A stretch of DNA of 49,815 nt from an uncultured Candidatus Saccharibacteria bacterium (GTDB lineage Bacteria > Patescibacteriota > Minisyncoccia > Phycocordibacterales > JAKFXT01): NCBI GenBank assembly GCA_964443725.1, contig CAYUDP010000004.1, positions 1 to 49,815 on the forward strand, read 5' to 3'. Made by a program: the position numbers and the translations under genes. The notes under the pieces are model-generated. The model ran no database searches, was not told the DNA's origin, and saw nothing but the letters and a program-made list of their open reading frames with translations. Shown here piece after piece: positions 3,824 through 29,598 of this stretch (positions are counted from its first letter, which is position 1; each line of letters opens with the position of its first letter).

Positions 3824-4207
3824 GTGACAAAATTCAAAATCGTGACCATAAAAGAGCTCAGGGGGGAAGCGACATTTTCTCTCATTGCTTTTTCGGATGG
3901 CACCCCCAAAGATGAGGAGAGTTTCAGAACGGTCTTAGATGAAATCTCTAAGCTTATCGACAAAAACGGAGGACTCAAGCGATGGGAGATAAGCATGTGC
4001 TCCCACACTCCCGCTCTAACACCTTCATCTGAAGATGAGCCGTTCAAGATTCTCTTCGAAAAATCCAAAACCGGAGGTGTCATCTACCTCGGGGAATGGG
4101 TACCAATCAACTTAAAGTGGGCCGGTCTTACGGAATTTTTCTGTGCCCACCGTCCGAGACCACAACCGCAAAGGAGAAGAAGATGTCCAAGTATTACTAC
4201 AGTCTGA
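3824..4207 (+). CDS. Hypothetical protein (127 aa), GC-rich cassette 1, gene a
   Basis: GTG 3824 is preceded by AGGAGG (3811-3816, 7-nt spacing). MTKFKIVTIKELRGEATFSLIAFSDGTPKDEESFRTVLDEISKLIDKNGGLKRWEISM... G+C is far above the flanks. The C-terminal approx. 25 aa (RPRPQPQRRRRC...) overlap the next gene and may be read-through of low meaning. Confidence 0.55.
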   Translation: MTKFKIVTIKELRGEATFSLIAFSDGTPKDEESFRTVLDEISKLIDKNGGLKRWEISMCSHTPALTPSSEDEPFKILFEKSKTGGVIYLGEWVPINLKWAGLTEFFCAHRPRPQPQRRRRCPSITTV

Positions 4208-4518
4208 TCACCGTCTCGGCCCCAGCTTCCGCTGTAAGTCCGATAACAATCGTCGTCGGGCCAAGTGAAGAAATGACGAAGCTCGGTGGATGCAGGAATA
4301 AGTTCGTCAGGCTCCTCGAAGACTTGAAAAGATCCGACTTGATGGTGTCCGAGCTCCTCGGCGTCCACTCGGTCCCCCCTCCCCCCGCCCCACAAGAGAT
4401 TCCGGCGGAAATCATGGGCAGACGCTCAGTCACGACCTTTCTCAAACCCGACACGGCTGAAGTATTGGCCAAGTTTGTGAACGACCGCTTACAAGTGGTT
4501 GAATGTGGCGTCGACTAG
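4183..4518 (+). CDS. Hypothetical protein (111 aa), GC-rich cassette 1, gene b
   Basis: ATG 4183 is preceded by AAGGAGAAG (GGAG 4173-4176, 6-nt spacing). MSKYYYSLITVSAPASAVSPITIVVGPSEEMTKLGGCRNKFVRLLEDLKRSDLMVSELLG...PPPPAPQEIPAE... Followed by a strong terminator. The track ORF begins at 4096, but no SD lies there. Confidence 0.55.
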   Translation: MSKYYYSLITVSAPASAVSPITIVVGPSEEMTKLGGCRNKFVRLLEDLKRSDLMVSELLGVHSVPPPPAPQEIPAEIMGRRSVTTFLKPDTAEVLAKFVNDRLQVVECGVD

Positions 4519-4538
4519 TACGGCCCCACACTCGAAAA

Positions 4539-4563
4539 CGCCCCCGTAAGGGGGCGCTTTTTA
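4539..4563. terminator. Bidirectional rho-independent terminator shared by cassette 1 (+) and rnc (-)
   Basis: AAAA-CGCCCCC(4539-4545)-GTAA-GGGGGCG(4550-4556)-CTTTTT. There is a U-run on both strands. The rnc stop codon is at 4561-4563. Confidence 0.8.
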
Positions 4564-5256
4564 TCTCCAACCTTTTTTTTCAAGAGCCCGCTGGGCCGCG
4601 TTTTGCTCTGCTTCTTGCTTACTCTTACCCTCACCTCCAGAAACCAATTCATCTCCTATATAAACCGCTACTTTAAACTTTTTATCATGATCTGGACCCA
4701 ACTCTTCAACTGTTTTATAAACAGGAGTAAGACCATTGTGTTCTTGAGCCTGTTCTTGAAAATGACTTTTAGCATCAAGCCATAACTTCTCTTTGACAAT
4801 ACTTTCAGTTAAATGAAAAACATTTTTTTCAATAAATTCTTTAGCCGAATCATAACCACGATCGAGATATATTGCCCCAACCACCGCCTCAAAAGCATTT
4901 GCCAAAATAGTATCTCTTGCTCGACCATTATCCTTGGCCTCACCCTTAGAAAGCAACATGAAATCATTCATACCGATATCCTTGGCAACGCCACTTAAAG
5001 TGACAGCATTTACTAGTGCAGCACGAAATGAGGTGAGATCACCCTCTGCTTTATCTGGATATTTTTCATACAAATACCTCGTAACAATAAGCTCAAGAAC
5101 TGCATCACCAAGAAACTCCAATCGCTCATTATGGGAGACCTTACTGCCTCTATGTTCGTTTAGATATGACCTATGAGTAAAAGCCTGCTTCAAAAGAGCT
5201 TTGTCTTCAAAAAATATCCCTATTTTTTCTTCAAAATTCTCGAATGCCGGAATCAT
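4561..5256 (-). CDS. rnc: Ribonuclease III
   Basis: Signature HNERLEFLGDAVLELIV, with a C-terminal dsRBD (KTVEELGPDHDKKFKVAVYIGDELVSGGEGKSKQEAEQNAAQRAL). Confidence 0.95.
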   Translation of the reverse strand: MIPAFENFEEKIGIFFEDKALLKQAFTHRSYLNEHRGSKVSHNERLEFLGDAVLELIVTRYLYEKYPDKAEGDLTSFRAALVNAVTLSGVAKDIGMNDFMLLSKGEAKDNGRARDTILANAFEAVVGAIYLDRGYDSAKEFIEKNVFHLTESIVKEKLWLDAKSHFQEQAQEHNGLTPVYKTVEELGPDHDKKFKVAVYIGDELVSGGEGKSKQEAEQNAAQRALEKKGWR

Positions 5257-6210: not shown

Positions 6211-6235
6211 CAGCAAAACACTTCTTACTTTGCTG
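6211..6235 (-). terminator. Terminator of rpmF
   Basis: On the minus strand CAGCAAA-11 nt-TTTGCTG followed by AATTTTTTTC. The hairpin includes the rpmF stop codon. Confidence 0.5.
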
Positions 6236-6458
6236 ACGCCTCTTCTCCTTTGCGACTCTTGCGAGCTGTTTTCTTCTCTATAGCTTTCACAACATCAACA
6301 ACTACACGACCGCGGTACTTTCCGCAGGAAGCGCAGGCTGTATGTGGACGACGAAGAGCCCCACAAGAGGTGCACTTTGTCATGCGTATAAGAGAAAGAG
6401 CATGGTGCGAACGTCGGTTCGCTGTATGTGCTCTTGTATGTCGCATTCTTACAGTCAT
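6225..6458 (-). CDS. rpmF: 50S ribosomal protein L32
   Basis: MTVRMRHTRAHTANRRSHHALSLIRMTKCTSCGALRRPHTACASCGKYRGR. This shows the L32 pattern of a basic N-terminus followed by CxxC...CxxC. Confidence 0.9.
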   Translation of the reverse strand: MTVRMRHTRAHTANRRSHHALSLIRMTKCTSCGALRRPHTACASCGKYRGRVVVDVVKAIEKKTARKSRKGEEASAK

Positions 6459-6521
6459 AGCGGGCAGTATAACACAAAAATATTTATACGCAACACAAAT
6501 ATAAGACCTTTTTGATCAATG

Positions 6522-6544
6522 AAAAAGGGCGCCGATTGGCGCCC
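6522..6544 (-). terminator. Terminator of Cys-rich small gene (cassette 2a)
   Basis: Minus strand GGGCGCC-AATC-GGCGCCC-TTTTT. It is preceded (6551-6592) by a second long hairpin, GTCCCACACAGG...CCTGTGTTTGGGAC. Confidence 0.75.
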
Positions 6545-6600
6545 CGTTCTGTCCCAAACACAGGCGAACAAAAACCTCCTGTGTGGGACAAGTTGGCCCC

Positions 6601-6801
6601 TTAGTGGGGCCTGGGCCTCATCTTGGCCGAAAACATCTCTTCCGAGAACACGAGATGCTCGCATCCGGCGTTGAAATTCCCCGATCCAATGAAGACCTTG
6701 AAGTGTTTGCACCCGCGCTGCTTCTCGCAGGCGAAACACAACGTCGTTTCACCGGCACCTCTGCTCGGTGCCGGTCCTTCCCGTTCTGCAACTACAGCCA
6801 T
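6601..6801 (-). CDS. Small Cys/His-containing protein (66 aa), GC-rich cassette 2a
   Basis: ATG 6801 with GGAG (6810-6813) 8 nt upstream. MAVVAEREGPAPSRGAGETTLCFACEKQRGCKHFKVFIGSGNFNAGCEHLVFSEEMFSAKMRPRPH (CxxC...C..H...C.H). Has its own TGGTATAAT promoter and its own terminator. Confidence 0.55.
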   Translation of the reverse strand: MAVVAEREGPAPSRGAGETTLCFACEKQRGCKHFKVFIGSGNFNAGCEHLVFSEEMFSAKMRPRPH

Positions 6802-6856
6802 CTTTTTTTCTCCGATGGTTTTGAGGGATTAAAGGAACTCCCACAGAACATACCCT

Positions 6857-6904
6857 CATTTGTTCAGGGGAAATTCCATTATACCACATTTTTTCAGGGG
6901 AAAC
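6857..6904 (-). promoter_or_regulatory. Extended -10 promoter bracketed by an 18-bp direct repeat (candidate operator)
   Basis: Plus-strand copies CATTTGTTCAGGGGAAAT (6857-6874) and CATTTTTTCAGGGGAAAC (6887-6904) are exactly 30 bp apart and 16/18 identical. Between them the minus strand reads TGGTATAAT (6878-6886). Confidence 0.55.
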
Positions 6905-6944
6905 AACACTCTATAATACAACTGTGTATAAAACCCAACCAATG

Positions 6945-6967
6945 AAAAAGGAGCGGTTTCCCGCCCC
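6945..6967 (-). terminator. Terminator of Gly-rich small gene (cassette 2b)
   Basis: Minus strand GGGGCGG-GAAA-CCGCTCC-TTTTT. It shares flanking strings (GCCAATCGG upstream, CCTTTTTCATTG downstream) with the terminator at 6522-6544. Confidence 0.7.
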
Positions 6968-6994
6968 CGATTGGCCCAAGCTGTAACTGTAGGT

Positions 6995-7198
6995 TTACTT
7001 ACCCCCGCTCCAGATGGGCATTGCACATCCGCCGGAGTTCACAAACGTCGTGTCTCCAGTCTGTACCTGCTTTTTTTCCCCAGTACCCCCCACTCCACCA
7101 CAGTCACTCCCCGAGACAGGTCGCAAAACCGCCGGGGGGACTTTGGGTTGAGGAAGGTCACTCCCTTTGCCTCCCAGAAGCTGACATTTTTTAGCCAT
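6995..7198 (-). CDS. Small Gly/Pro-rich, 3-Cys protein (67 aa), GC-rich cassette 2b
   Basis: ATG 7198 with GGGAG (7204-7208) 5 nt upstream. MAKKCQLLGGKGSDLPQPKVPPAVLRPVSGSDCGGVGGTGEKKQVQTGDTTFVNSGGCAMPIWSGGK. Has its own terminator. Confidence 0.5.
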   Translation of the reverse strand: MAKKCQLLGGKGSDLPQPKVPPAVLRPVSGSDCGGVGGTGEKKQVQTGDTTFVNSGGCAMPIWSGGK

Positions 7199-7272
7199 AC
7201 ATTCTCCCTTTACATTACAGGTTTAGAAAAAAGCTCCGAACAATATTTGGCCGGAAAGTATATATAAACACA

Positions 7273-7872
7273 CTATTCACTTTGTGCAAAATTCTTTAAA
7301 AAAAGCCTCCTGTGTTCATCTGAAAATCCATACTTCTTTATCATTTCTATGTGTTTTTTTGTTCCATAACCTTTATGTACTTCAAAACCATACTTGGGAT
7401 ATTTTTTAGACAAATTCACCATTTTCCTATCCCTTACAACCTTGGCAACAATAGAGGCTAGAGCTATAACGGTTTCTTTCTCATCACCTTTTATTATAGT
7501 TTTCTGTTTTTTATATTCTTTCGGAGCAAAAAGTGACCCATCTAGAAGTACTTCAACATTCTTATCTACAACAAGTTTAGATAGAACCATTTCTACTGAA
7601 ATTTTTGAAGATAAAGTCACTTTGTATTTGTCTAATGACTTTGCACTCATAAGATAATAGGAGAATTTGATTTTGCCACTTTTCGAATCTTCTTTTATTT
7701 TTTTAAATATTTCTTCTCTCTTTTCTCTACTTAATTTTTTTGAATCTTTTATTCTCCCCCACTTCTTAAGTTCCACCTTTGAAATAAGGACCCCTGCCAT
7801 ACACATAGGACCAGCAAGAGGCCCTCTTCCAGCTTCATCTATACCAACCAAAAAAACAGCTCTTTTTTCCAC
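7273..7872 (-). CDS. rnhB: Ribonuclease HII
   Basis: GIDEAGRGPLAGPM motif near the N-terminus, about 200 aa. GTG start with TATAAT 8 nt upstream. Confidence 0.9.
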   Translation of the reverse strand: MEKRAVFLVGIDEAGRGPLAGPMCMAGVLISKVELKKWGRIKDSKKLSREKREEIFKKIKEDSKSGKIKFSYYLMSAKSLDKYKVTLSSKISVEMVLSKLVVDKNVEVLLDGSLFAPKEYKKQKTIIKGDEKETVIALASIVAKVVRDRKMVNLSKKYPKYGFEVHKGYGTKKHIEMIKKYGFSDEHRRLFLKNFAQSE

Positions 7873-13407: not shown

Positions 13408-15609
13408 TTATATTCTCGCCAATGAAAGCTTATTGCTGTATCCGGCCTGCATAACAATATCGCGGACCTTTGAATCTGTAATAAATAGTGCTGTATCTTC
13501 GTCTGTGACTGACTTGTAAGCATTGATTATTCCAAGCAATATCCTTCGGGCGCTATATGAATCCCCTTTTGCGATATCAAATATCGCAAGTATAGCTTCA
13601 TTTGTAACCATAGCCCCATGATTTCTTGCATAATCTTCCAAGTCTTCCATGAAAGCTACACTTGGTTTCTTCGGCAAAACCTCACTTGCAACTGGAACAA
13701 TTTTCTCTACAATCTCAACCCTATCGACATATTCAACAACTTTTTCAATTTTTGCTGGTGTGACAATTATTTCAACATCCCCTCTTAATATCTTCCTTCT
13801 ATTTTCAAGTACAACTGAGAAATAAGCTAGAACTATACTCAGGACAATTAGACCTAAAATATATACTATGGTACCTGCATAATCTCCGAGCCCAGTATAT
13901 GGCACCTGAGAAAGAGAAACATATGATGAACCACCTCCATTTGAATACAGAGAAACAGTTGGAGAGATTCCACCCCCTCCGCCTCCACCACCGCCACCAG
14001 GAGAATTGATATTGAGGACTAGGTTAGCAGTTACAGTGCCACAAATATTTGTTGCAGAGATTACAACTGTATAAGATCCTGACAAAGTCGGGGTACCAGA
14101 TATAACTCCTGTTGAAGTTGAAACTGTAAGTCCAGATGGCAAACCTGTTGCATTGTAGCTTGTGGGGCTGTTATTTGCAGTTATTGTATAGCTGAAGGCA
14201 CTGCCAATCATTGCCGAGGCACTGAGTGATGAAGTAATGGCTGGAACAGCACAACCGCCTCCGCCGCCACCTCCACCTCCGCCGGTAGAATTTGAAACCG
14301 TAATAACCAAAGTACCACTTGCTGAACCACAATTATTGGAAATTGAAATGTTAATGGTATATGTACCAGTTGTAGTTGGTGTACCTGAAATAACTCCTGT
14401 AGTTGACGCAAATGAAAGCCATGATGGCAGGCCGGTTGCAACAAAAGTAGTAGGACTATTACTTCCAGTTATTGTGTAGCTAAAAGCATTGCCAACTGTA
14501 ACAGAAGCAGTAGGAGAAGAAGTAATAACTGGAATTCCAGGAACACACGACCCAGAAGTAGTAATTGTTATTACAACTGTCTTAGCTGCACTTCCACATG
14601 AATTTGTTGCGGTTAATGTGACTGTATAAGTACCTGCAGTTGTTGGTGTTCCAGAAATAACTCCTGTTGATGTGTTTATAGAAAGTCCAGATGGCAAACC
14701 TGTTGCACCAAAAGTTATTGGGGTCTTACCAGTTGCAACAGTTGTGTATGTGAACGAAACACCAATAACTCCTGAAGTTGTTGAGGCAGAAGTAATACTT
14801 GGGGAAACACAAGAAGGTGGAGTGACTGTAGTACCACCACCGGCAGTAGTGGAACTGTCACTTGAATGACTCAAAAGTAGTGCAGCAAGTACACCGGCTC
14901 CAAGCAAAGCCCAAGGTATAGAATCTTCAGAGTTTCCACCACCAATGTCTATACCTTCACTAGAGTTCCCACCGCCGATATCTAATCCAGCAGTAGAGTT
15001 CCCACCGCCGATATCAACACCAGAAAAAGAATTGCCCCCACCTATATCAAGTGGGACTTCAGAATTACCACCACCTATATCACTGCCAAAGAAACCAGCT
15101 GAATCGTCGGCATTTGATGAAAACCAATTATTATTAGCACTTGTATCAGAACTTCCAAACCAGAAATTACTTGAATCCGAACCATCATTCCCTCCCCCAA
15201 TGTCTGCTCCAGAATTATTTGAAGCTGTTCCAAAAAATCCACTATTATCAGAGTTAAAAGATGAAAAATCCCATGAAGTATCACTATTTGATCCCCCAAT
15301 ATCAACACCTGAACCGCTAGATACTGATGAGGTGTCATTGTTGTCGTTAATATACCCGACCCAAGGGTCAAATAGTAAATCATCATCGGCTCTAACTGTA
15401 TTTATCGTATTAGAATTATTTATTTTGTATCCGATCAAAACAGCACTAGGCGCAAAGAGAGACAAAATCAAAACAATAGCGAAGAATGGCTTCACTCCAT
15501 TTTGAGCAAACATTTTTGTTCTATATTCTATTTTTTTGATCATGTCTCTCATAATCTTTTTTATTCTTGATAATTTATCTTGCAAAAAAATCATATCGGT
15601 AAAATGCAA
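13408..15609 (-). CDS. Large cell-surface protein: N-terminal signal/anchor, DIGGGNS repeats, three He_PIG-type Ig domains joined by poly-Gly linkers, VPYTG sorting-like motif, TM helix, and a roughly 130-aa cytoplasmic tail
   Basis: The unit GLPSGLSINTSTGVISGTPTTAGTYTVTLTATNSCGSA occurs three times. GGGGGGGGG linkers are present. SLSQVPYTG-LGDYAGTIVYILGLIVLSIVLAYFSVVL-ENRRK, with VPYTG encoded at 13891-13905. The true start is probably an internal Met (M20/M23/M33 of the track ORF, i.e. 15552/15543/15513). Confidence 0.8.
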   Translation of the reverse strand: MHFTDMIFLQDKLSRIKKIMRDMIKKIEYRTKMFAQNGVKPFFAIVLILSLFAPSAVLIGYKINNSNTINTVRADDDLLFDPWVGYINDNNDTSSVSSGSGVDIGGSNSDTSWDFSSFNSDNSGFFGTASNNSGADIGGGNDGSDSSNFWFGSSDTSANNNWFSSNADDSAGFFGSDIGGGNSEVPLDIGGGNSFSGVDIGGGNSTAGLDIGGGNSSEGIDIGGGNSEDSIPWALLGAGVLAALLLSHSSDSSTTAGGGTTVTPPSCVSPSITSASTTSGVIGVSFTYTTVATGKTPITFGATGLPSGLSINTSTGVISGTPTTAGTYTVTLTATNSCGSAAKTVVITITTSGSCVPGIPVITSSPTASVTVGNAFSYTITGSNSPTTFVATGLPSWLSFASTTGVISGTPTTTGTYTINISISNNCGSASGTLVITVSNSTGGGGGGGGGGCAVPAITSSLSASAMIGSAFSYTITANNSPTSYNATGLPSGLTVSTSTGVISGTPTLSGSYTVVISATNICGTVTANLVLNINSPGGGGGGGGGGISPTVSLYSNGGGSSYVSLSQVPYTGLGDYAGTIVYILGLIVLSIVLAYFSVVLENRRKILRGDVEIIVTPAKIEKVVEYVDRVEIVEKIVPVASEVLPKKPSVAFMEDLEDYARNHGAMVTNEAILAIFDIAKGDSYSARRILLGIINAYKSVTDEDTALFITDSKVRDIVMQAGYSNKLSLARI

Positions 15610-15694: not shown

Positions 15695-16726
15695 CTACTT
15701 CTTGTCAGTCGCCACGTGAAGGTATTTGGGGTCACACCCTCGGGGAGTCGTCTCCCCCTCGGACATGATTAGCACCCTCTTGCCCCCAAACTTCGTGTCC
15801 ACCGGGGGGTAGACGAGGTCCTCGCCCTCAAAAAGAGCGACGACCTTATTCCCCCAAGCTTCCCTGGGAAGGGTAAACGAGGCAGATCCGTTCAGGATCT
15901 TCACCTCGCTAACCTTCATCCACTTCCCATTTTCAAGCCTTGCGACTTGGGAGGTGATGGTGGTCGAGGAAAGCTTGGCCTTGTCGGCCTCTTTCGCGGC
16001 GCGAAGCGCCGCCCCGAGACCACGCGACGCGGCGTCGGAACCGAAGTACCCCTTCTCATGTTCGGCCCTGACGAGCCGTTCACGAAGAGAGGGGTCCATA
16101 TTTCCACGATCCCAAACCATGAAGTTCCAGGTTTGGGACTTCGTCTCGCATGTCGAGATTACCTCGACAGTAGGCGCGGGGGCAACGACAGGTGCTGGAG
16201 GGGGCAAGTGCGCCCACTCGTAAACCTCGTTCCCGCATGCGTCGAGCGCGTACGGGGCCTCGGCGTCCTTCTCGAAGCGGAACATGGTCCCAATCTTCTG
16301 ATAGACCCACTTCTTACCGAGGGTGGTCAGCATGAAAACGCAGACGTCCGCCTCGGCGGGCTTGGCCTTCCGACCGTTTTTCCCCGCGGGCTTCTTCCCC
16401 CTGTTCTCGAAAAACTTGGGAACGTAGGGGGCGGCGAGCCCGGCCCGGAGCGCCGTGAGGCACTCATCCTTGGATGAAAAGATCACCGTCTTCTCCGGCA
16501 TCGCCATTGCCACCTTCCCCTTTTCGGAGGGAGGTAACTCCGCACCTTTCGATGCGGGGAGGGCGACGGGTGCCGGCTTGGCTTCAGTCGTGACAGACTT
16601 CGTAACGGCGGAAGCCGGTTTCTCTCCACCCCCCTTGAAGCCAAGGGTGGTCCCGAACTCCTTCAGGCTTGCGCAGCCCGAAAGGAGGCAAAGCACGGCC
16701 GCGAAGGCCAGAAAAATACGGGTCAT
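15695..16726 (-). CDS. Lipoprotein of unknown function (343 aa), GC-rich cassette 3
   Basis: MTRIFLAFAAVLCLLSGCASL, with lipobox LSGC at Cys18. GGAG (16733-16736) lies 6 nt upstream of ATG. GC3-rich codons: AAG outnumbers AAA several-fold by hand translation. All other ORFs in 15916-16926 are high-GC shadows. Confidence 0.8.
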   Translation of the reverse strand: MTRIFLAFAAVLCLLSGCASLKEFGTTLGFKGGGEKPASAVTKSVTTEAKPAPVALPASKGAELPPSEKGKVAMAMPEKTVIFSSKDECLTALRAGLAAPYVPKFFENRGKKPAGKNGRKAKPAEADVCVFMLTTLGKKWVYQKIGTMFRFEKDAEAPYALDACGNEVYEWAHLPPPAPVVAPAPTVEVISTCETKSQTWNFMVWDRGNMDPSLRERLVRAEHEKGYFGSDAASRGLGAALRAAKEADKAKLSSTTITSQVARLENGKWMKVSEVKILNGSASFTLPREAWGNKVVALFEGEDLVYPPVDTKFGGKRVLIMSEGETTPRGCDPKYLHVATDKK

Positions 16727-16935: not shown

Positions 16936-17655
16936 TTATTTCAAGGTTTGTTTAGTACTTGTTGACCCTACAAAAGAAGCCACAACAACATATCTCTCAC
17001 TTTTCTCACCGAAACCATTACAGGTTGAGACAACTAGTTTTCTTTTCCTTTCGGAAAGATTAACAAGCGCATCATCGGCCTTTGTCAAAGTGACCGTGTC
17101 TACTGAATACGTATACTCCTTACCATTTTCAGAATAAAGTTTTATCTCACTTCGTGGAGATAATTTTGGAATTTCTGAAAAAAGTTTGAAGTTTTGATTG
17201 TGAACGATGGGAAGATGTGATGAGTGACCAAAGATGAATATCGTTTGATTGCTCTCAAGGTCTCCAGACTCTGGGTATCTAACCGCTCCGTATAGAAGTG
17301 CATCATCAAGAGTCTTTGTATCTGAACTCTTGGGATTTAAAACTTTCGCATCCACCCCGATCTTAGAGATTACTACCCTAACAGGCTCAGTATAGCTACC
17401 AAACCTAACCGTCTCCACCAAATCACCTTCATTAACAGAACTTCTTTCATCGTGAATAAAAATCGAGAAAAAAGCATTGTTAATTTCCTTGACCCCCTTT
17501 GGTGCAAAACCAAGACTGACAAGGATAACTAGAAATCCAATAAAGAAAAGTATAGTGCGATAAAGCACGCTGATTTTACTTACTTTTACCTTGAAGTTTC
17601 TCTTTTCCATCGTTTTATGTGGTTTTGTCAAAGAAAGGACACACCTTTCCACCAC
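16936..17655 (-). CDS. Sortase-family transpeptidase
   Basis: N-terminal TM (ILFFIGFLVILVSLGF), catalytic His (IFIFGHSSH), TLxTC-type Cys (LVVSTCNG), conserved Arg (SERYVVVA). The track start is GTG 17655; ATG 17610 (MEKRNFKV...) is an equally plausible start. Confidence 0.8.
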   Translation of the reverse strand: MVERCVLSLTKPHKTMEKRNFKVKVSKISVLYRTILFFIGFLVILVSLGFAPKGVKEINNAFFSIFIHDERSSVNEGDLVETVRFGSYTEPVRVVISKIGVDAKVLNPKSSDTKTLDDALLYGAVRYPESGDLESNQTIFIFGHSSHLPIVHNQNFKLFSEIPKLSPRSEIKLYSENGKEYTYSVDTVTLTKADDALVNLSERKRKLVVSTCNGFGEKSERYVVVASFVGSTSTKQTLK

Positions 17656-25689: not shown

Positions 25690-25982
25690 ACACGTGTGAC
25701 AGTTCTTTTGAAAGGAGATACGTATGGAAAACCATACCTATCCGTCTTTCAGAGAAGACCCAGCGTTTTAGGATGACTGCCTACTCAATTACATCCGTTT
25801 CTTAGCTGAGACCGATCAACTTGAGTTAATGTCCACCAAAAAGCCGTCACTCTCTGATTATGACGGCACACCCGAGGATTAATTCCTCGCACCTTCAAGG
25901 AGTTGCGCTTGAGCCGAATACCATGCTCGCCACTTCCCTTCTTGAAGCAAGCCCCGCGATACGCTGGGCTTTTGTGTTTTTT
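25690..25982 (+). ncRNA. Candidate structured RNA of unknown class (about 290 nt) with an SD-led 15-codon ORF, ending in its own terminator
   Basis: AAAGGAGA plus ATG 25724..TAG 25771 (MENHTYPSFREDPAF). Hairpins: GCCGTCA/TGACGGC (25843-25867), CGAGGA/TCCTCG (25873-25889), CTTCAAG/CTTGAAG (25893-25947). Terminator AAGCCC-11 nt-GGGCTT-TTGTGTTTTTT (25949-25982). No downstream + strand gene, and no convincing protein ORF on either strand. Confidence 0.35.
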
Positions 25983-26502
25983 AGCGACCAATGAAAATCG
26001 CCATTCTTCTCCAATCGGACAAAAATGTCGGTATGTCTACAAACCTACATTCTCCATATTCAACAGTAAGAGACTCTGGTTCATTAAAATAAAATCCTTT
26101 TAATTCACCATTTTCTCCCTTCTCATAACCCACGACAACCACCATGTGAAATTTATTCTCATTCAAAAATCTTTTAACACAAGAAGCAATAACTGGTTCA
26201 TTCTTATCTAAAGATAAGGCAATTTTCTCCAAACCCGAATCTATATCCATACCTTCTTCTCTGTGAGCATCAATTCCACTCCCCCTTGCAACTGATAAGA
26301 AATAATCATGTATCCACCCTGAGTTACTGTATCCACCAGCTTCCTTACCTTTAATACACATTTCACTAATCTCTTCGGTCTCTACACCATGGTAATCTAA
26401 AACCATCTTTAGACAACACATGCCACAAGCCCGAGGTATCCAAAAAGGATCCTTTATGTGCATATATTGAGAGTAAAAGGGTACTTTGATCTTCTTAGTC
26501 AT
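25981..26502 (-). CDS. Papain-fold cysteine peptidase, C39-like (Peptidase_C39_2 type)
   Basis: VPFYSQYMHIKDPFWIPRACGMCCLKMVLDYHG (catalytic Cys context) and FHMVVVVGY (His). The start ATG overlaps the pheT stop (TAATG at 26500-26504). Confidence 0.7.
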   Translation of the reverse strand: MTKKIKVPFYSQYMHIKDPFWIPRACGMCCLKMVLDYHGVETEEISEMCIKGKEAGGYSNSGWIHDYFLSVARGSGIDAHREEGMDIDSGLEKIALSLDKNEPVIASCVKRFLNENKFHMVVVVGYEKGENGELKGFYFNEPESLTVEYGECRFVDIPTFLSDWRRMAIFIGR

Positions 26503-28856
26503 TACCTTATTTCAAAACCACTACTCTTAAGCGATGAACATATGTCATCCATATTCTTATTTACCTCCTCATCAGTCAAAGTTTTCTCTTTTGATTGAAA
26601 AACTAGATGATAGGCCAGAGAAACCTTGCCATCCTTTTCAAATTTATCAAAAAGATCACATCTTATAAGATCCTCTCCTCCATCTTTTCTTATTTGTTTT
26701 TCAACATCAGATTCGTTTACATTTGATAGAGTCCAAAAAGCAATATCTCTCAATATAAATGGAAAAACGGAAATACTTTTATAAACAACAGGGATCGATG
26801 TTAGGCTTACTTCTTTATCACTTTCTCTTAATTGCACTTTGGATATATTCGCACTATAGACACCATCTCCCTCATCGATAAGTTTTATACCCAAGTCTTC
26901 CATCTTACTTATCGCTAAACTCAGCCTTTCCTCGCTCTCTTTCTTTTCACTCTTCCCCTTTCTTGCCGGCAATGACAACAAAGAAAGAGATATGTGCTCA
27001 CTATCTAGGTCAGTAAAGACAGACCCGATTTCAAAGATACTAATAACCCCCATATTCAGAAGCGGAGCGTTATAGGAATTTAATTTATAACTCTTGATTA
27101 GGCCATCTTTGATGTTTTCTCGCATGAAAGACTTGTCATTTGCAATTGGGTTTGCAATCTCAACTTTACCTTTTTCAACCATTGCATAGGTATAAACTTC
27201 CGAAAAACCAATATTCACAAGTTCTCTACGTATAATCTGCGAAATAGAAAAAGTATCATTTTTGGGCACATCTCCAATCTTTTGCGGGACAACACTTTCA
27301 ATATGAGCTAATCCATATAGCCTCCCAACCTCCTCAATAAGATCCTCGGGCAATCTCAAGTCGAGCCGTTCAAAAGGTACCTCAATAATAAATCTCTCTT
27401 CATTATTTTTTAATATACGCCCGTAGCCAACAATATTTTTGAAATAATTACTTTCACTTATTTTTTCTTTCTTTACACCATTGTTTCCTTTTGAAGCATG
27501 CACCACTTCTCCATTACCAATATATATCCCAACATGATCAACTCCTTCCTTCACTTCAACCCCAGGCATAAACTCCTTTGACACATGATGCAATATCCCA
27601 AACTCATGAATACCAGTATTACTAAAGACCAAATCTAATTCTTTCAAGCCTCCTTCTAGGATGGATTCAGAATAGACCATTTGGTCAACTGTCATTCTTG
27701 GTATGGAAATACCAGCCTGTATAAAAGAATAAGAAACAAAAGATGAACAATCAAAAAAATCAGGTGCCTCTACACTTATTGAAGCTCCACTCTTATATGG
27801 TCTACCAATAAGAGCCTTTACTGTATTTTCTATCTGATCTTCTGGATTAACTTTGGCAAATTCAAAACCATAACGATTTAATATTCCCTCCAAATCACTA
27901 TTCTTAAGATTTGTACCCAGCAAACCATTAACTTCGCTTAGTGACACCCCGAGTCTATATGGTTTCTTTTTGGTTTTATATAAATCAACCAGACTATCTA
28001 CCTTGAAAGACTTATCATTGGCACATTCTGAAATAATTTTTATTGCCAAAGATACAGCATACATAGTCCACTCTGGAGAAATACCGTTTTCAAATCGAAC
28101 AGAGGCATCAGTTCTTAGGTTTAGTTTTTTGGAACTCTTCCTTATATTTTCTGGATTAAAATTCGCTGCTTCAAGCAAAATATTTTTTGTGTTTTCATCA
28201 ATACCAGCTTCCATTCCACCCTTTATGCCCGCAATACCTAAAATAGACCCATTATCATTACCATCAGATATAAGTATCATCCCCTCACCAAGAGTCCTCT
28301 CTTCTTTGTCCAGAGTAATAGTTTTTTCCCCATCTTTTGCCTCTCTCACAAGAATAAAGTTAGTGCCATCCTTTTTCTTCAGTTTATCAGCATCAAAAGC
28401 GTGCATCGGCTGACCAAGCTCAAACATCACATAATTTGTAATATCAACTATATTGTTTATAGATCGCCCACCCATACTTTCTATCTTCTCTTTGAGCCAA
28501 GATGGAGACTCCACGACTTTTATATTCTCGATAAGAGCCATAGTAAAACGAGGAACAAGCTTGGATTCCACTTCGACTTTGAGCTTAGGACTTTCGTGCG
28601 GTAATAAATTTTTCTCTATATTATCTTTTTCAATTTTTATATTCAAAATTGAACTTATTTCTTTTGCAATTCCCCTATGAGAGAGACAGTCGTGAGCCCT
28701 ATTTGGTAGCACTTTTACATCAAGAATATAATCTCCCGCCTGTTCAAAAACCTCTTCAATCTCAAAAGCATGCATAGTAAGCGCCTCAGCAACCTTATCT
28801 GCTGAAGGTAATTTGCCACTGAAATATTCATTTAACCATTTATGAGAAACTTTCAT
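26502..28856 (-). CDS. pheT: Phenylalanyl-tRNA synthetase beta subunit carrying an inserted NlpC/P60 domain
   Basis: MKVSHKWLNEYF start. B3_4 domain (NNIVDITNYVMFELGQPMHAFD), B5 start (LSEVNGLLGTNL...LNRYGFEF), then GRPYKSGA...FDCSSFVSYSFIQAGISIPR...DLVF...DHVGIYIGNGEVVHAS (NlpC/P60 Cys-His pattern), then B5 resumes (IIEVPFERLDLRLPEDLIEEVGRLYG). C-terminal FDX-ACB-like end. ATG 28856 is preferred over the TTG at 28871. Confidence 0.9.
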   Translation of the reverse strand: MKVSHKWLNEYFSGKLPSADKVAEALTMHAFEIEEVFEQAGDYILDVKVLPNRAHDCLSHRGIAKEISSILNIKIEKDNIEKNLLPHESPKLKVEVESKLVPRFTMALIENIKVVESPSWLKEKIESMGGRSINNIVDITNYVMFELGQPMHAFDADKLKKKDGTNFILVREAKDGEKTITLDKEERTLGEGMILISDGNDNGSILGIAGIKGGMEAGIDENTKNILLEAANFNPENIRKSSKKLNLRTDASVRFENGISPEWTMYAVSLAIKIISECANDKSFKVDSLVDLYKTKKKPYRLGVSLSEVNGLLGTNLKNSDLEGILNRYGFEFAKVNPEDQIENTVKALIGRPYKSGASISVEAPDFFDCSSFVSYSFIQAGISIPRMTVDQMVYSESILEGGLKELDLVFSNTGIHEFGILHHVSKEFMPGVEVKEGVDHVGIYIGNGEVVHASKGNNGVKKEKISESNYFKNIVGYGRILKNNEERFIIEVPFERLDLRLPEDLIEEVGRLYGLAHIESVVPQKIGDVPKNDTFSISQIIRRELVNIGFSEVYTYAMVEKGKVEIANPIANDKSFMRENIKDGLIKSYKLNSYNAPLLNMGVISIFEIGSVFTDLDSEHISLSLLSLPARKGKSEKKESEERLSLAISKMEDLGIKLIDEGDGVYSANISKVQLRESDKEVSLTSIPVVYKSISVFPFILRDIAFWTLSNVNESDVEKQIRKDGGEDLIRCDLFDKFEKDGKVSLAYHLVFQSKEKTLTDEEVNKNMDDICSSLKSSGFEIR

Positions 28857-28857
28857 A

Positions 28858-29598
28858 TTAAAATTGATCAACTAGCCTTAAATCCCCTTCGTATAAAAGT
28901 CTAACATCATCTATCCCATACTTGAGCATAGCGAGCCTATCTAATCCAGCTCCAAAAGCAAAACCAGAATATTTTTTTGGATGAATTTTTACAGCTTCAA
29001 GTACTTTCGGATGGACCATACCCGCCCCCATGATCTCGATATAACCAGTACCCTTACATACATTGCATCCACCACCAGAACATTTGAAACAAGTCATATC
29101 AACTTCAACCCCAGGTTCAACAAAAGGAAAATAGCTCGGCCTCAAACGAACACTGGTCTTTGCTCCAAAAAACTTTGTAAAAAACTCCTCCAGTGTTCCT
29201 TTCAAATGTCCCATAGAAACATTCTCACCCACCATCAATCCCTCGAGTTGGTAAAACTGAGCTTCATGAGTCGCATCTGTTGCTTCATGTCTATAAACTT
29301 TACCAGGGGCTATTATTCTTATTGGTGGTTCATGAGTCTCCATATATCTTATCTGCACCGGAGAAGTGTGTGTCCTAAGAAGTTTTTTACCTGAAAGAGG
29401 GTTTAACCAAAATGTATCCCACATATCTCTTGCTGGGTGGAAACTTGGAACGTTCAAAGCATCGAAATTATAAAATTCACTCTCTATTTCAGGACCCTGA
29501 GCAACAGCGAAACCCATCTCTCTAAAAATAGAATTTATATCAGAGAGTATAATACTTAGAGGATGAAGATGCCCCTTGTTTCCTGTTATTTTTTCCAT
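28858..29598 (-). CDS. pheS: Phenylalanyl-tRNA synthetase alpha subunit (catalytic core only, 246 aa)
   Basis: HPLSIILSDINSIFREMGF, FDALNVPSFHPARDMWDTFW, LRTHTSPVQIR, FPFVEPGVEVD, GFAFGAGLDRLAML. Confidence 0.95.
   Translation of the reverse strand: MEKITGNKGHLHPLSIILSDINSIFREMGFAVAQGPEIESEFYNFDALNVPSFHPARDMWDTFWLNPLSGKKLLRTHTSPVQIRYMETHEPPIRIIAPGKVYRHEATDATHEAQFYQLEGLMVGENVSMGHLKGTLEEFFTKFFGAKTSVRLRPSYFPFVEPGVEVDMTCFKCSGGGCNVCKGTGYIEIMGAGMVHPKVLEAVKIHPKKYSGFAFGAGLDRLAMLKYGIDDVRLLYEGDLRLVDQF

Follow-up and report, generated by a model that had tools for sequence, protein, structure and literature searches.

Two lineage-restricted small-protein genes, one conserved and one with hypervariable alleles, between rnhB and rpmF of an uncultured Patescibacteria bacterium

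Genomes of the Patescibacteria, or candidate phyla radiation (CPR), are tiny and full of unannotated genes, and their small proteins are usually either ignored or impossible to validate. The question of what such sequences represent is raised by contig CAYUDP010000004.1 (GenBank assembly GCA_964443725.1), whose positions 1 to 49,815 are hereafter called the window. Two short minus-strand open reading frames (ORFs) lie there between the genes of RNase HII (rnhB) and ribosomal protein L32 (rpmF):

7273..7872, minus strand: rnhB, the upstream flank of the two-ORF region
6995..7198, minus strand: ORF1, 67 amino acids (aa), Gly/Pro-rich, under purifying selection across haplotypes
6601..6801, minus strand: ORF2, 66 aa here and 64-66 aa among alleles, with a coding signature and hypervariable alleles
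6225..6458, minus strand: rpmF, the downstream flank of the two-ORF region

An earlier note made from the DNA sequence described this pair as mini-genes, each with its own Shine-Dalgarno sequence and terminator, and all these elements are found where it placed them. Are the two ORFs genes, and of what kind? The reading that we favour, with a probability of roughly 0.6, is that they are two accessory small-protein genes restricted to one lineage, of foreign composition and located in a variable slot of the chromosome, one being conserved while the other has diverse, recombining alleles.

The coding status of the two ORFs was assessed by strain comparison. Protein look-ups retrieved the homologous locus on 13 contigs from independent assemblies (L001-L007 and L211-L216), which are overall 92-98% identical and comprise 7 haplotypes; SRR12404957, SRR31616034, DRR274959 and JGI 3300045396 are examples of samples in which the locus occurs. 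In ORF1 the ratio of non-synonymous to synonymous substitution rates (dN/dS) is 0.03-0.13 for haplotype pairs, and 9 of the 10 substitutions that separate the window from L002 are synonymous (binomial p = 2e-5). Its variable sites are distributed 3/5/12 over the three codon positions. Sixty-one of its 67 residues are invariant in the 7 haplotypes, among them the cysteines C5, C33 and C58. The 71 variable sites of ORF2 fall 17/17/37 on the codon positions (p = 0.004); dN/dS is 0.12-0.39 and an excess of synonymous changes is found in every pair (p = 1e-3 to 2e-6). The reading frame of ORF2 is kept through its indels, which are two of 3 nucleotides (nt) and a 1-nt deletion that recreates a stop codon. 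Invariant residues number 36 of 66, including four cysteines and a 12-residue block, GAGETTLCFACE, within the conserved core GAGETTLCFACE.Q.GC.HF..FI..GNF..GCE..VFS. The plus-strand ORFs that overlap the region (6583..6945 and 6971..7267), whose reality would have spoken against the mini-genes according to the earlier note, are frameshifted or truncated in relatives by a 2-nt indel and by other indels, and the remaining reading frames likewise fail to keep their length or are interrupted. ORF2 is called as a 95-aa protein in some relatives, but the upstream extension hinges on the same 2-nt indel that breaks the plus-strand ORF and was thus rejected as a gene-caller artefact. Because of the codon periodicity, the synonymous excess, the in-frame indels and the lack of conservation of the plus-strand ORFs, ORF1 and ORF2 are, as judged from these alignments, genuine protein-coding genes under purifying selection at the protein level.

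The two genes differ strongly in diversity. Nucleotide diversity (pi) is low for ORF1 and the non-coding flanks (0.02-0.05, with 0.031 for positions 6802-6994) and reaches 0.16 in ORF2, with sharp steps at the start and stop codons of the latter. In comparisons covering 6-12 kb, the 200-bp block occupied by ORF2 holds 31-36 differences (versus L003 and L002) while other blocks mostly have 0-10; in the comparison with L001 the gene spans two such blocks, with 27 and 21 differences. ORF2 is a peak in all comparisons, whereas each of the other divergent patches appears in a single one. The synonymous rate (dS) is 0.35-0.94 in ORF2 versus 0.06-0.21 in ORF1, a difference because of which the ORF2 alleles would be old or imported, and not merely fast-evolving at the protein level. 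A minimum number of recombination events (Rm) of at least 16 inside ORF2, with massive incompatibility among informative sites, indicates that the alleles are mosaic. Identical ORF2 alleles were recovered from independent samples, so assembly noise does not account for this variation. The promoter, leader, 3′ hairpin and terminator of ORF2 are far more conserved than the synonymous sites of ORF1. They are presumably functional, and the conserved flanks presumably also provide the homology necessary for allele exchange.

Both proteins lack a match in Pfam, NCBIfam, PHROGs, PADLOC and the PDB sequences, as well as in tblastn searches of phage and plasmid collections. A word-indexed search of 5.8 billion clustered proteins with ORF1 and ORF2 returned the same locus only. 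An exhaustive search of 1.84 billion representatives with a HMMER profile of the ORF2 alignment returned only its own cluster; the exhaustive profile search concerns ORF2, while the database search with ORF1 was word-indexed. ORF1 was found neither in the GTDB species representatives nor among the at least 600 candidate metagenome-contig stretches listed, the latter being a weak negative. No alignment or similarity was found between the two proteins, which agrees with the description of the ORFs as unrelated in the earlier note, and the window contains no paralogue of either one and no partial copy of ORF2. As far as these searches reach, detectable homologues of the two proteins are confined to one species-level lineage of Patescibacteria. 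The amino-terminus of ORF1, MAKKCQLLGGKG, has what we take to be a resemblance to the start of ribosomal protein L28, an identity that was rejected by the absence of a Pfam or NCBIfam match at E ≤ 1.

The window has a GC content of 38% and belongs to the core chromosome of an uncultured Patescibacteria bacterium of the Parcubacteria/Paceibacteria type. Its genes encode SMC, RNase III, a NusB-NUDIX fusion, L32, RNase HII, DnaE, ThrRS and GyrB, together with PheST, EF-Ts, S2, RF, L25 and enzymes of glycolysis and the pentose-phosphate pathway; the window ORFs scanned against Pfam comprise all but a few of those of at least 110 aa. The NusB-NUDIX protein is 58-68% identical to that of the nearest GTDB species representatives, which are labelled Paceibacterota, Taylorbacteria or Parcubacteria, and Saccharibacteria in some automated records. 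Within this chromosome the rnhB-rpmF stretch holds two blocks of 55-60% GC. The GC content at third codon positions (GC3) is 0.53 in ORF1 and 0.67 in ORF2, compared to 0.25-0.36 in twelve host genes. Since GC is raised at the synonymous sites themselves, the anomaly comes from codon usage and not from amino acid content; both ORFs are foreign to their host in this respect. The order dnaE/rnhB...rpmF/nusB is kept in 66 related Patescibacteria loci, in which the distance between rnhB and rpmF varies from 19 to 4877 nt and in many cases is of 19-70 nt only. The gaps contain lineage-specific, unrelated ORFs (NUDIX-like, assorted hypotheticals and some small Cys-rich ORFs), with no look-alike of ORF1 or ORF2 among them. 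Because gap size and gene content differ among the 66 loci, the slot can be read as an accretion hot spot.

ORFs of ~160-240 aa (mostly 173-201) recur in the rnhB-rpmF gaps of L014, L019, L027, L043, L045, L060, L071, L076 and L081. Several of them start with MNSTQGRP... and are presumed to be NUDIX-like. Their recurrence suggests repeated capture or retention of certain accessory genes at this site.

This organization recalls the phage "morons", a concept reportedly due to Hendrix and Juhala. Morons are extra genes with their own expression signals and an atypical composition, located between genes that lie next to each other in relatives. The likeness lies in the promoter, GGAG ribosome-binding site and terminator (T2) of ORF2, in the base composition of both ORFs (GC3 0.53-0.67 against ~0.3 in the host) and in their insertion between genes that are 19-70 nt apart in many relatives. 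The two genes differ from morons in being flanked by core housekeeping genes (those of SMC, RNase III, NusB, L32, RNase HII and DnaE), in lacking any PHROG or phage tblastn match, and in that ORF1 has no convincing promoter of its own. A moron-like accretion of two small genes between rnhB and rpmF would account for the arrangement. The following signals, in the order of transcription, were assigned to the two genes:

7261..7289, minus strand: weak candidate promoter of ORF1, TTGCAC-N17-TATATA, overlapping the rnhB stop codon and not picked up by the consensus scan
7204..7208, minus strand: Shine-Dalgarno sequence of ORF1, GGGAG, 5 nt before the ATG (7198), read from the sequence
6944..6968, minus strand: ORF1 terminator T1, 8-bp stem (6968-6949), GAAA loop, T5
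6878..6906, minus strand: ORF2 promoter, −35 TTGTTT (6906-6901), 17-nt spacer, extended −10 TGGTATAAT (6886-6878)
6802..6871, minus strand: predicted 5′ untranslated region (UTR) of ORF2, nearly invariant up to the start codon
6813-6810, minus strand: Shine-Dalgarno sequence of ORF2, GGAG, 8 nt before the ATG (6801), read from the sequence
6549..6591, minus strand: 3′ UTR hairpin of ~13 bp, arms ~6550-6563 and 6578-6591, between the ORF2 stop codon and its terminator
6521..6545, minus strand: ORF2 terminator T2, 8-bp stem (6545-6526), AATC loop, T5, invariant in all haplotypes

No terminator was found between rnhB and ORF1, and because nothing of the kind separates them ORF1 may ride on the rnhB transcript. 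A G-to-A change at 6968, present in several haplotypes, converts a G.U pair of the T1 stem into A-U. The signals of ORF2 are more complete. The extended −10 sequence pointed out in the earlier note is present and is preceded by a −35 element (17-nt spacer); the −10 hexamer and its TG are invariant in all haplotypes, with a predicted transcription start at ~6871. The additional hairpin mentioned there, between stop codon and terminator, was likewise recovered. It is almost invariant, two changes retaining pairing as G.U and one breaking a pair, without covariation. ORF2 has thus the predicted features of a complete unit of promoter, leader, ORF, hairpin and terminator, the promoter being strong and its own.

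The earlier note had also observed that the two terminator regions share strings and interpreted them as a common 3′ cassette end or as the trace of a module duplication. The strings are exact: CAATGAAAAAGG is found at 6517-6528 and 6940-6951, and CCGATTGGC at 6532-6540 and 6967-6975. They do not exceed chance, as this region has frequent 12-nt matches to other parts of the window (seven others). T1 and T2 align with a score of 30, which is above that of shuffled sequence (p ~0.002). T2 nevertheless aligns with a score of 31 to a terminator near position 1356 that is unrelated, which leaves a common cassette end or duplication without support. In the first alignment, 5 of the 7 relatives have GCCAATCAG at T1 in place of the 9-mer. 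Since GCCAATCGGC is itself the palindromic top of a hairpin, it can arise convergently. Searching for the cassette-end pattern GCCAATCRG..CCTTTTTCATTG, as had been proposed, gave one chance match in IMG/VR and 73 single matches in metagenome contigs, none of them corresponding to this locus and several being convergent GC-rich hairpins of organisms of 60-67% GC. A cassette signature was rejected, given the alteration of the T1 9-mer in most relatives and the single, unrelated nature of the database matches. The shared strings look like an ordinary resemblance between terminators. Integron cassettes consist of promoterless ORFs, each followed by a shared attC site, with an integrase nearby. An integron-type cassette was rejected here because ORF2 has its own promoter and the 3′ strings in common are generic to terminators; no integrase was found among the scanned window ORFs.

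The core promoter and the start of the transcript of ORF2 are overlapped by a direct repeat, which the earlier note gave as 18 bp with a spacing of 30 bp and took for a repressor operator. The repeat is borne out, extending over 20 nt with 18 of 20 positions matching and an exact start-to-start distance of 30 bp:

6884..6903, minus strand: upstream copy TTTCCCCTGAAAAAATGTGG, occupying the −35/−10 spacer of the ORF2 promoter, variable at 6900 and 6895 in several haplotypes
6854..6873, minus strand: downstream copy TTTCCCCTGAACAAATGAGG, extending over the predicted transcription start and ~18 nt at the beginning of the leader, variable at 6873 and 6871 in several haplotypes

The best of 1000 dinucleotide shuffles of the intergenic region gave 16/20 and none gave 18/20, so that the repeat is statistically real. 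It is found in all 7 haplotypes and brackets the −10, covering the spacer and the transcription start, a geometry that would allow a repressor bound at both copies to occlude the ORF2 promoter. What is absent is conservation above the surroundings. By our count ~13 sites are substituted in the 193-nt spacer between the genes, 4 of which are inside the 40 nt of the repeat (20% of the length); the two copies drift independently and are only 15/20 identical in one haplotype. The motif TTTCCCCTGAAnAAATG has no other copy in the 49.8-kb window, and no regulator gene was found within ~10 kb among the Pfam-scanned ORFs. The 16-base motif gave 49 single matches at chance level in IMG/VR. As a spaced pair it matched only unrelated tandem repeats; Tandem Repeats Finder reported nothing. 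An operator could coexist with the reading of ORF1 and ORF2 as accessory genes, though on balance we regard it as somewhat unlikely. The direct repeat would be explained equally well by an old local duplication that overlaps the core promoter and the 5′ end of the transcript; it could be a binding site, although its conservation does not point to one.

Several other explanations of the locus can be weighed against this evidence. RNA genes often appear as GC-rich islands in AT-rich genomes, and the 55-60% GC blocks in a genome of 38% GC might be structured non-coding RNAs in which the ORFs are incidental. The ORF2 transcript folds below its shuffles (z = −5.7) and the non-coding flanks are more conserved than ORF2, as would be expected for RNA; much of that z-score comes, nevertheless, from the terminator and the 3′ hairpin, and for the ORF1 transcript z is only −1.0. 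Rfam 15, searched at gathering and at permissive thresholds, matched no family, the best scores being 21-24 bits versus gathering values of 45-46 bits. The codon-position periodicity and synonymous excess of both ORFs, with indels in frame, largely refute an RNA interpretation as far as substitutions can tell, and we consider it highly improbable. Equally improbable is a dedicated mutagenic system that would make ORF2 hypervariable, whether by a diversity-generating retroelement or by gene conversion with silent cassettes. It would explain the sharp diversity boundaries at the ends of ORF2, the conserved flanks, the 12 multi-allelic positions among 68 variable sites and the extreme homoplasy. 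Diversity-generating retroelements possess a nearby reverse transcriptase and a template repeat, with variation confined to template adenines. No reverse transcriptase was found among the Pfam-scanned ORFs and no template-like repeat in the window, and the variation has no adenine bias (A, T, G and C occur at 35, 37, 44 and 33 variable sites, respectively), so such an element was excluded. The 38 transitions versus 18 transversions and the enrichment at third positions correspond to ordinary mutation, and no partial ORF2 copy that could act as a silent cassette is present in the window or among called database proteins. ORF2 might instead be decaying or nearly neutral, its diversity being the product of relaxed constraint and imported patches with no selective maintenance. 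The dN/dS values up to 0.39, the amino acid changes in 28 of 66 codons, the divergent patches elsewhere along the contig and a GC-rich segment at 4200-4520 that is also hypervariable, without a coding signal, are in line with this possibility. It is rather improbable in view of a dN/dS clearly below 1 in every pair, of the 36 invariant residues with the four cysteines and the 12-residue block, of a frame kept through three indels, of a diversity peak seen in every comparison while the other patches appear in one each, and of the near invariance of promoter, leader, hairpin and terminator.

The earlier note had proposed that the products are metal-binding or secreted-peptide precursors, and had pointed to a GG after a short leader-like amino-terminus. 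A precursor role would mean processing to a secreted or modified peptide, with a double-glycine leader or of the ribosomally synthesized and post-translationally modified (RiPP) type. The motifs on which the note drew are present, CxxC...C..H...C.H in ORF2 and MAKKCQLLGG at the start of ORF1, a protein with much Gly, Ser, Thr and Cys; ORF2 is both hypervariable and Cys-rich, and a C39_2-like peptidase is encoded at 25981-26502. The consensus length of GG-leaders is 15-25 aa. In ORF1 the GG occupies residues 9-10, an amino-terminus too short for this consensus. Both proteins are mildly basic, with a Kyte-Doolittle maximum (15-residue window) below 0.6; because a hydrophobic segment is missing, they are read as having neither a signal peptide nor a membrane helix. 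The variable residues of ORF2 are spread along the protein instead of being grouped in a core behind a conserved leader. No YcaO, radical-SAM, LanM or ABC-transporter gene was found among the Pfam-scanned window ORFs, and none for any modification enzyme or transporter within ~10 kb, in accordance with the remark in the earlier note that nothing of the kind lies nearby. The C39-like gene is 19 kb away, adjoining pheT. A secreted or modified product is therefore very unlikely, and both proteins would be soluble and cytoplasmic.

The other part of that proposal, metal binding, remains plausible for ORF2. The cysteines C22, C25, C31 and C47 are invariant in 7/7 haplotypes, H33 is also kept, and the pattern C22-x2-C25-x5-C31-x-H33 ... 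C47 has its CxxC at a predicted beta-turn. ORF2 might bind a metal, probably Zn, via the four cysteines arranged as a knuckle. It shares with Cys4 zinc-knuckle and zinc-ribbon proteins the invariant C-x2-C-x5-C ... C and the position of the CxxC. It differs from them in its spacing, which is not the usual pair of CxxC motifs, in the lack of a Pfam or PDB zinc-ribbon match and in the unreliability of the fold model. The profile searches suggested in the earlier note gave no family match for either peptide, and AlphaFold2 models are of a confidence too low for a meaningful fold search, with a predicted local distance difference test (pLDDT) score of 51 for ORF2 and 54 for ORF1.

How could the diversity of ORF2 have been built up and kept? 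Homologous recombination in the conserved flanks would swap ORF2 alleles, and balancing or frequency-dependent selection would keep them diverse. Allelic hypervariability bounded by conserved flanks is also seen at loci of the pherotype or immunity type, for instance comC and agrD. ORF2 resembles them in its sharp boundaries, in its old mosaic alleles and in flanks that are possible recombination handles. It differs in having no nearby gene for a cognate receptor, a kinase, or processing or export, no leader or signal sequence in its product, and no known phenotype. Hypervariable, allele-swapping patterns are characteristic of proteins that take part in conflict with, or recognition of, phages, hosts or competing strains, and the ORF2 diversity suggests such a role. 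The most specific version of this idea, which we consider doubtful, holds that ORF2 is the expression site of a hypervariable metal-binding protein acting in recognition, immunity or anti-defence, whose alleles are swapped via the flanks under frequency-dependent selection, with ORF1 as its fixed partner.

A number of points weigh against these interpretations. The 7 haplotypes are all metagenome assemblies, in which a chimeric consensus might exaggerate the signal of recombination. As dN/dS nowhere exceeds 1, positive selection on ORF2 is not shown, and repeated import of diverged alleles could give its diversity without selective maintenance. ORF1 has only a weak candidate for a promoter of its own. 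The metal-knuckle fold is deduced solely from the cysteine pattern, the structural models having the low scores quoted above, and H49 of ORF2 is Tyr in one allele, from which it follows that its His residues are not all essential.

Weak hints exist of an old, extremely fast-evolving syntenic family to which ORF2 would belong, a possibility of low probability. In three other lineages the rnhB-rpmF slot carries a conserved sigma-70 promoter followed by a 12-bp 5′ hairpin (CGGCUCCCUUUG...CAAAGGGAGCCG):

L009, ~1060-1190: promoter and 5′ hairpin element in the rnhB-rpmF slot
L012, ~5090-5220: the same element
L016, ~2180-2310: the same element

Fast-evolving small ORFs are located downstream of it. 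A GDGVVS motif is common to those of L009 and L016, and CxxC-x5-7-C...C motifs like that of ORF2 occur in the ones of L012 and L016; the protein of L012 is an orphan, too. Small ORFs with the CxxC-x5-7-C..C pattern sit in the same slot in L008, L012, L016 and L075. Comparison of ORF2 with the small Cys ORFs of related slots gave E = 0.05 in a hidden Markov model (HMM) search of 137 gap ORFs, and P = 0.015 with a probability of 3% in hhalign. Homology of the promoter and leader in the window to the element of L009, L012 and L016 was rejected, as an nhmmer model of the latter found no match to positions 6800-6925.

The region downstream of ORF2 shows features of its own. The promoter of rpmF was read from the sequence as follows:

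6466..6493, minus strand: TTGCGT-N16-(TGT)TATACT, i.e. TTGCGT-N16-TGTTATACT

Its −10 is separated from the rpmF ATG (6458) by 7 nt only, and there is no Shine-Dalgarno site. Because of this short distance and the missing site, the L32 mRNA is probably leaderless; the same spacing of −10, 7 nt and ATG is repeated in L008, L009 and L012. Directly upstream of this promoter, a 22-nt near-perfect palindrome, CCTTTTTCATTGATCAAAAAGG (minus strand, 6507-6528), is formed by the T-tail of T2 and the sequence that follows, and is invariant in all haplotypes.

Other segments of the window also stand out by their composition. The stretch 4190-4560, between rnc and a hypothetical gene, has ~57% GC and is hypervariable relative to L003 (62 differences in 400 bp and a 4-nt indel). 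It exhibits no codon periodicity in any frame (24/23/22), a fold z of −2.0 and no Rfam match, and ends at a plus-strand terminator at ~4557; gene callers differ on its coding strand. It may be a non-coding or decaying element. A 343-aa orphan encoded at 15695-16726 (minus strand) has a lipoprotein-like amino-terminus (LLSGC), 60% GC, a GC3 of 0.75 and no Pfam match. It adjoins genes for a sortase (16936-17655) and a He_PIG/Ig surface protein (13408-15609), and its region forms a further island of foreign composition, which the segment 25000-26000 (50-55% GC, with orphan ORFs) resembles. PheRS beta (26502-28871, minus strand) carries an NlpC/P60 peptidase domain inserted between B3_4 and B5, and the Peptidase_C39_2-like ORF (25981-26502, minus strand) follows immediately downstream, an unusual pairing for a tRNA synthetase locus.

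ORF1 and ORF2 resemble bacterial ORFans in their size below 70 aa, their restriction to a single lineage and their measurable coding signature. To our knowledge most reported ORFans lack population-level evidence. Such evidence is available here, one gene being strongly conserved and its neighbour a peak of diversity. Strain comparison thus suffices to validate two orphans of less than 70 aa as real genes. The locus also calls for caution on two accounts: GC-rich islands in AT-rich genomes are not necessarily RNAs, and look-alike terminators are not necessarily marks of mobile cassettes. On present evidence ORF1 and ORF2 are interesting yet ordinary accessory orphan genes. ORF2 is the most diverse stretch of the region compared (~6-12 kb, depending on the relative), which makes it a candidate for strain-level functions in conflict or recognition in an uncultured symbiont. 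If it has such a function, ORF2 would act in the conflict of an ultra-small CPR symbiont with phages, hosts or sister strains and, if its alleles are indeed swapped, would provide a compact and experimentally tractable hypervariable locus in a little-known lineage.

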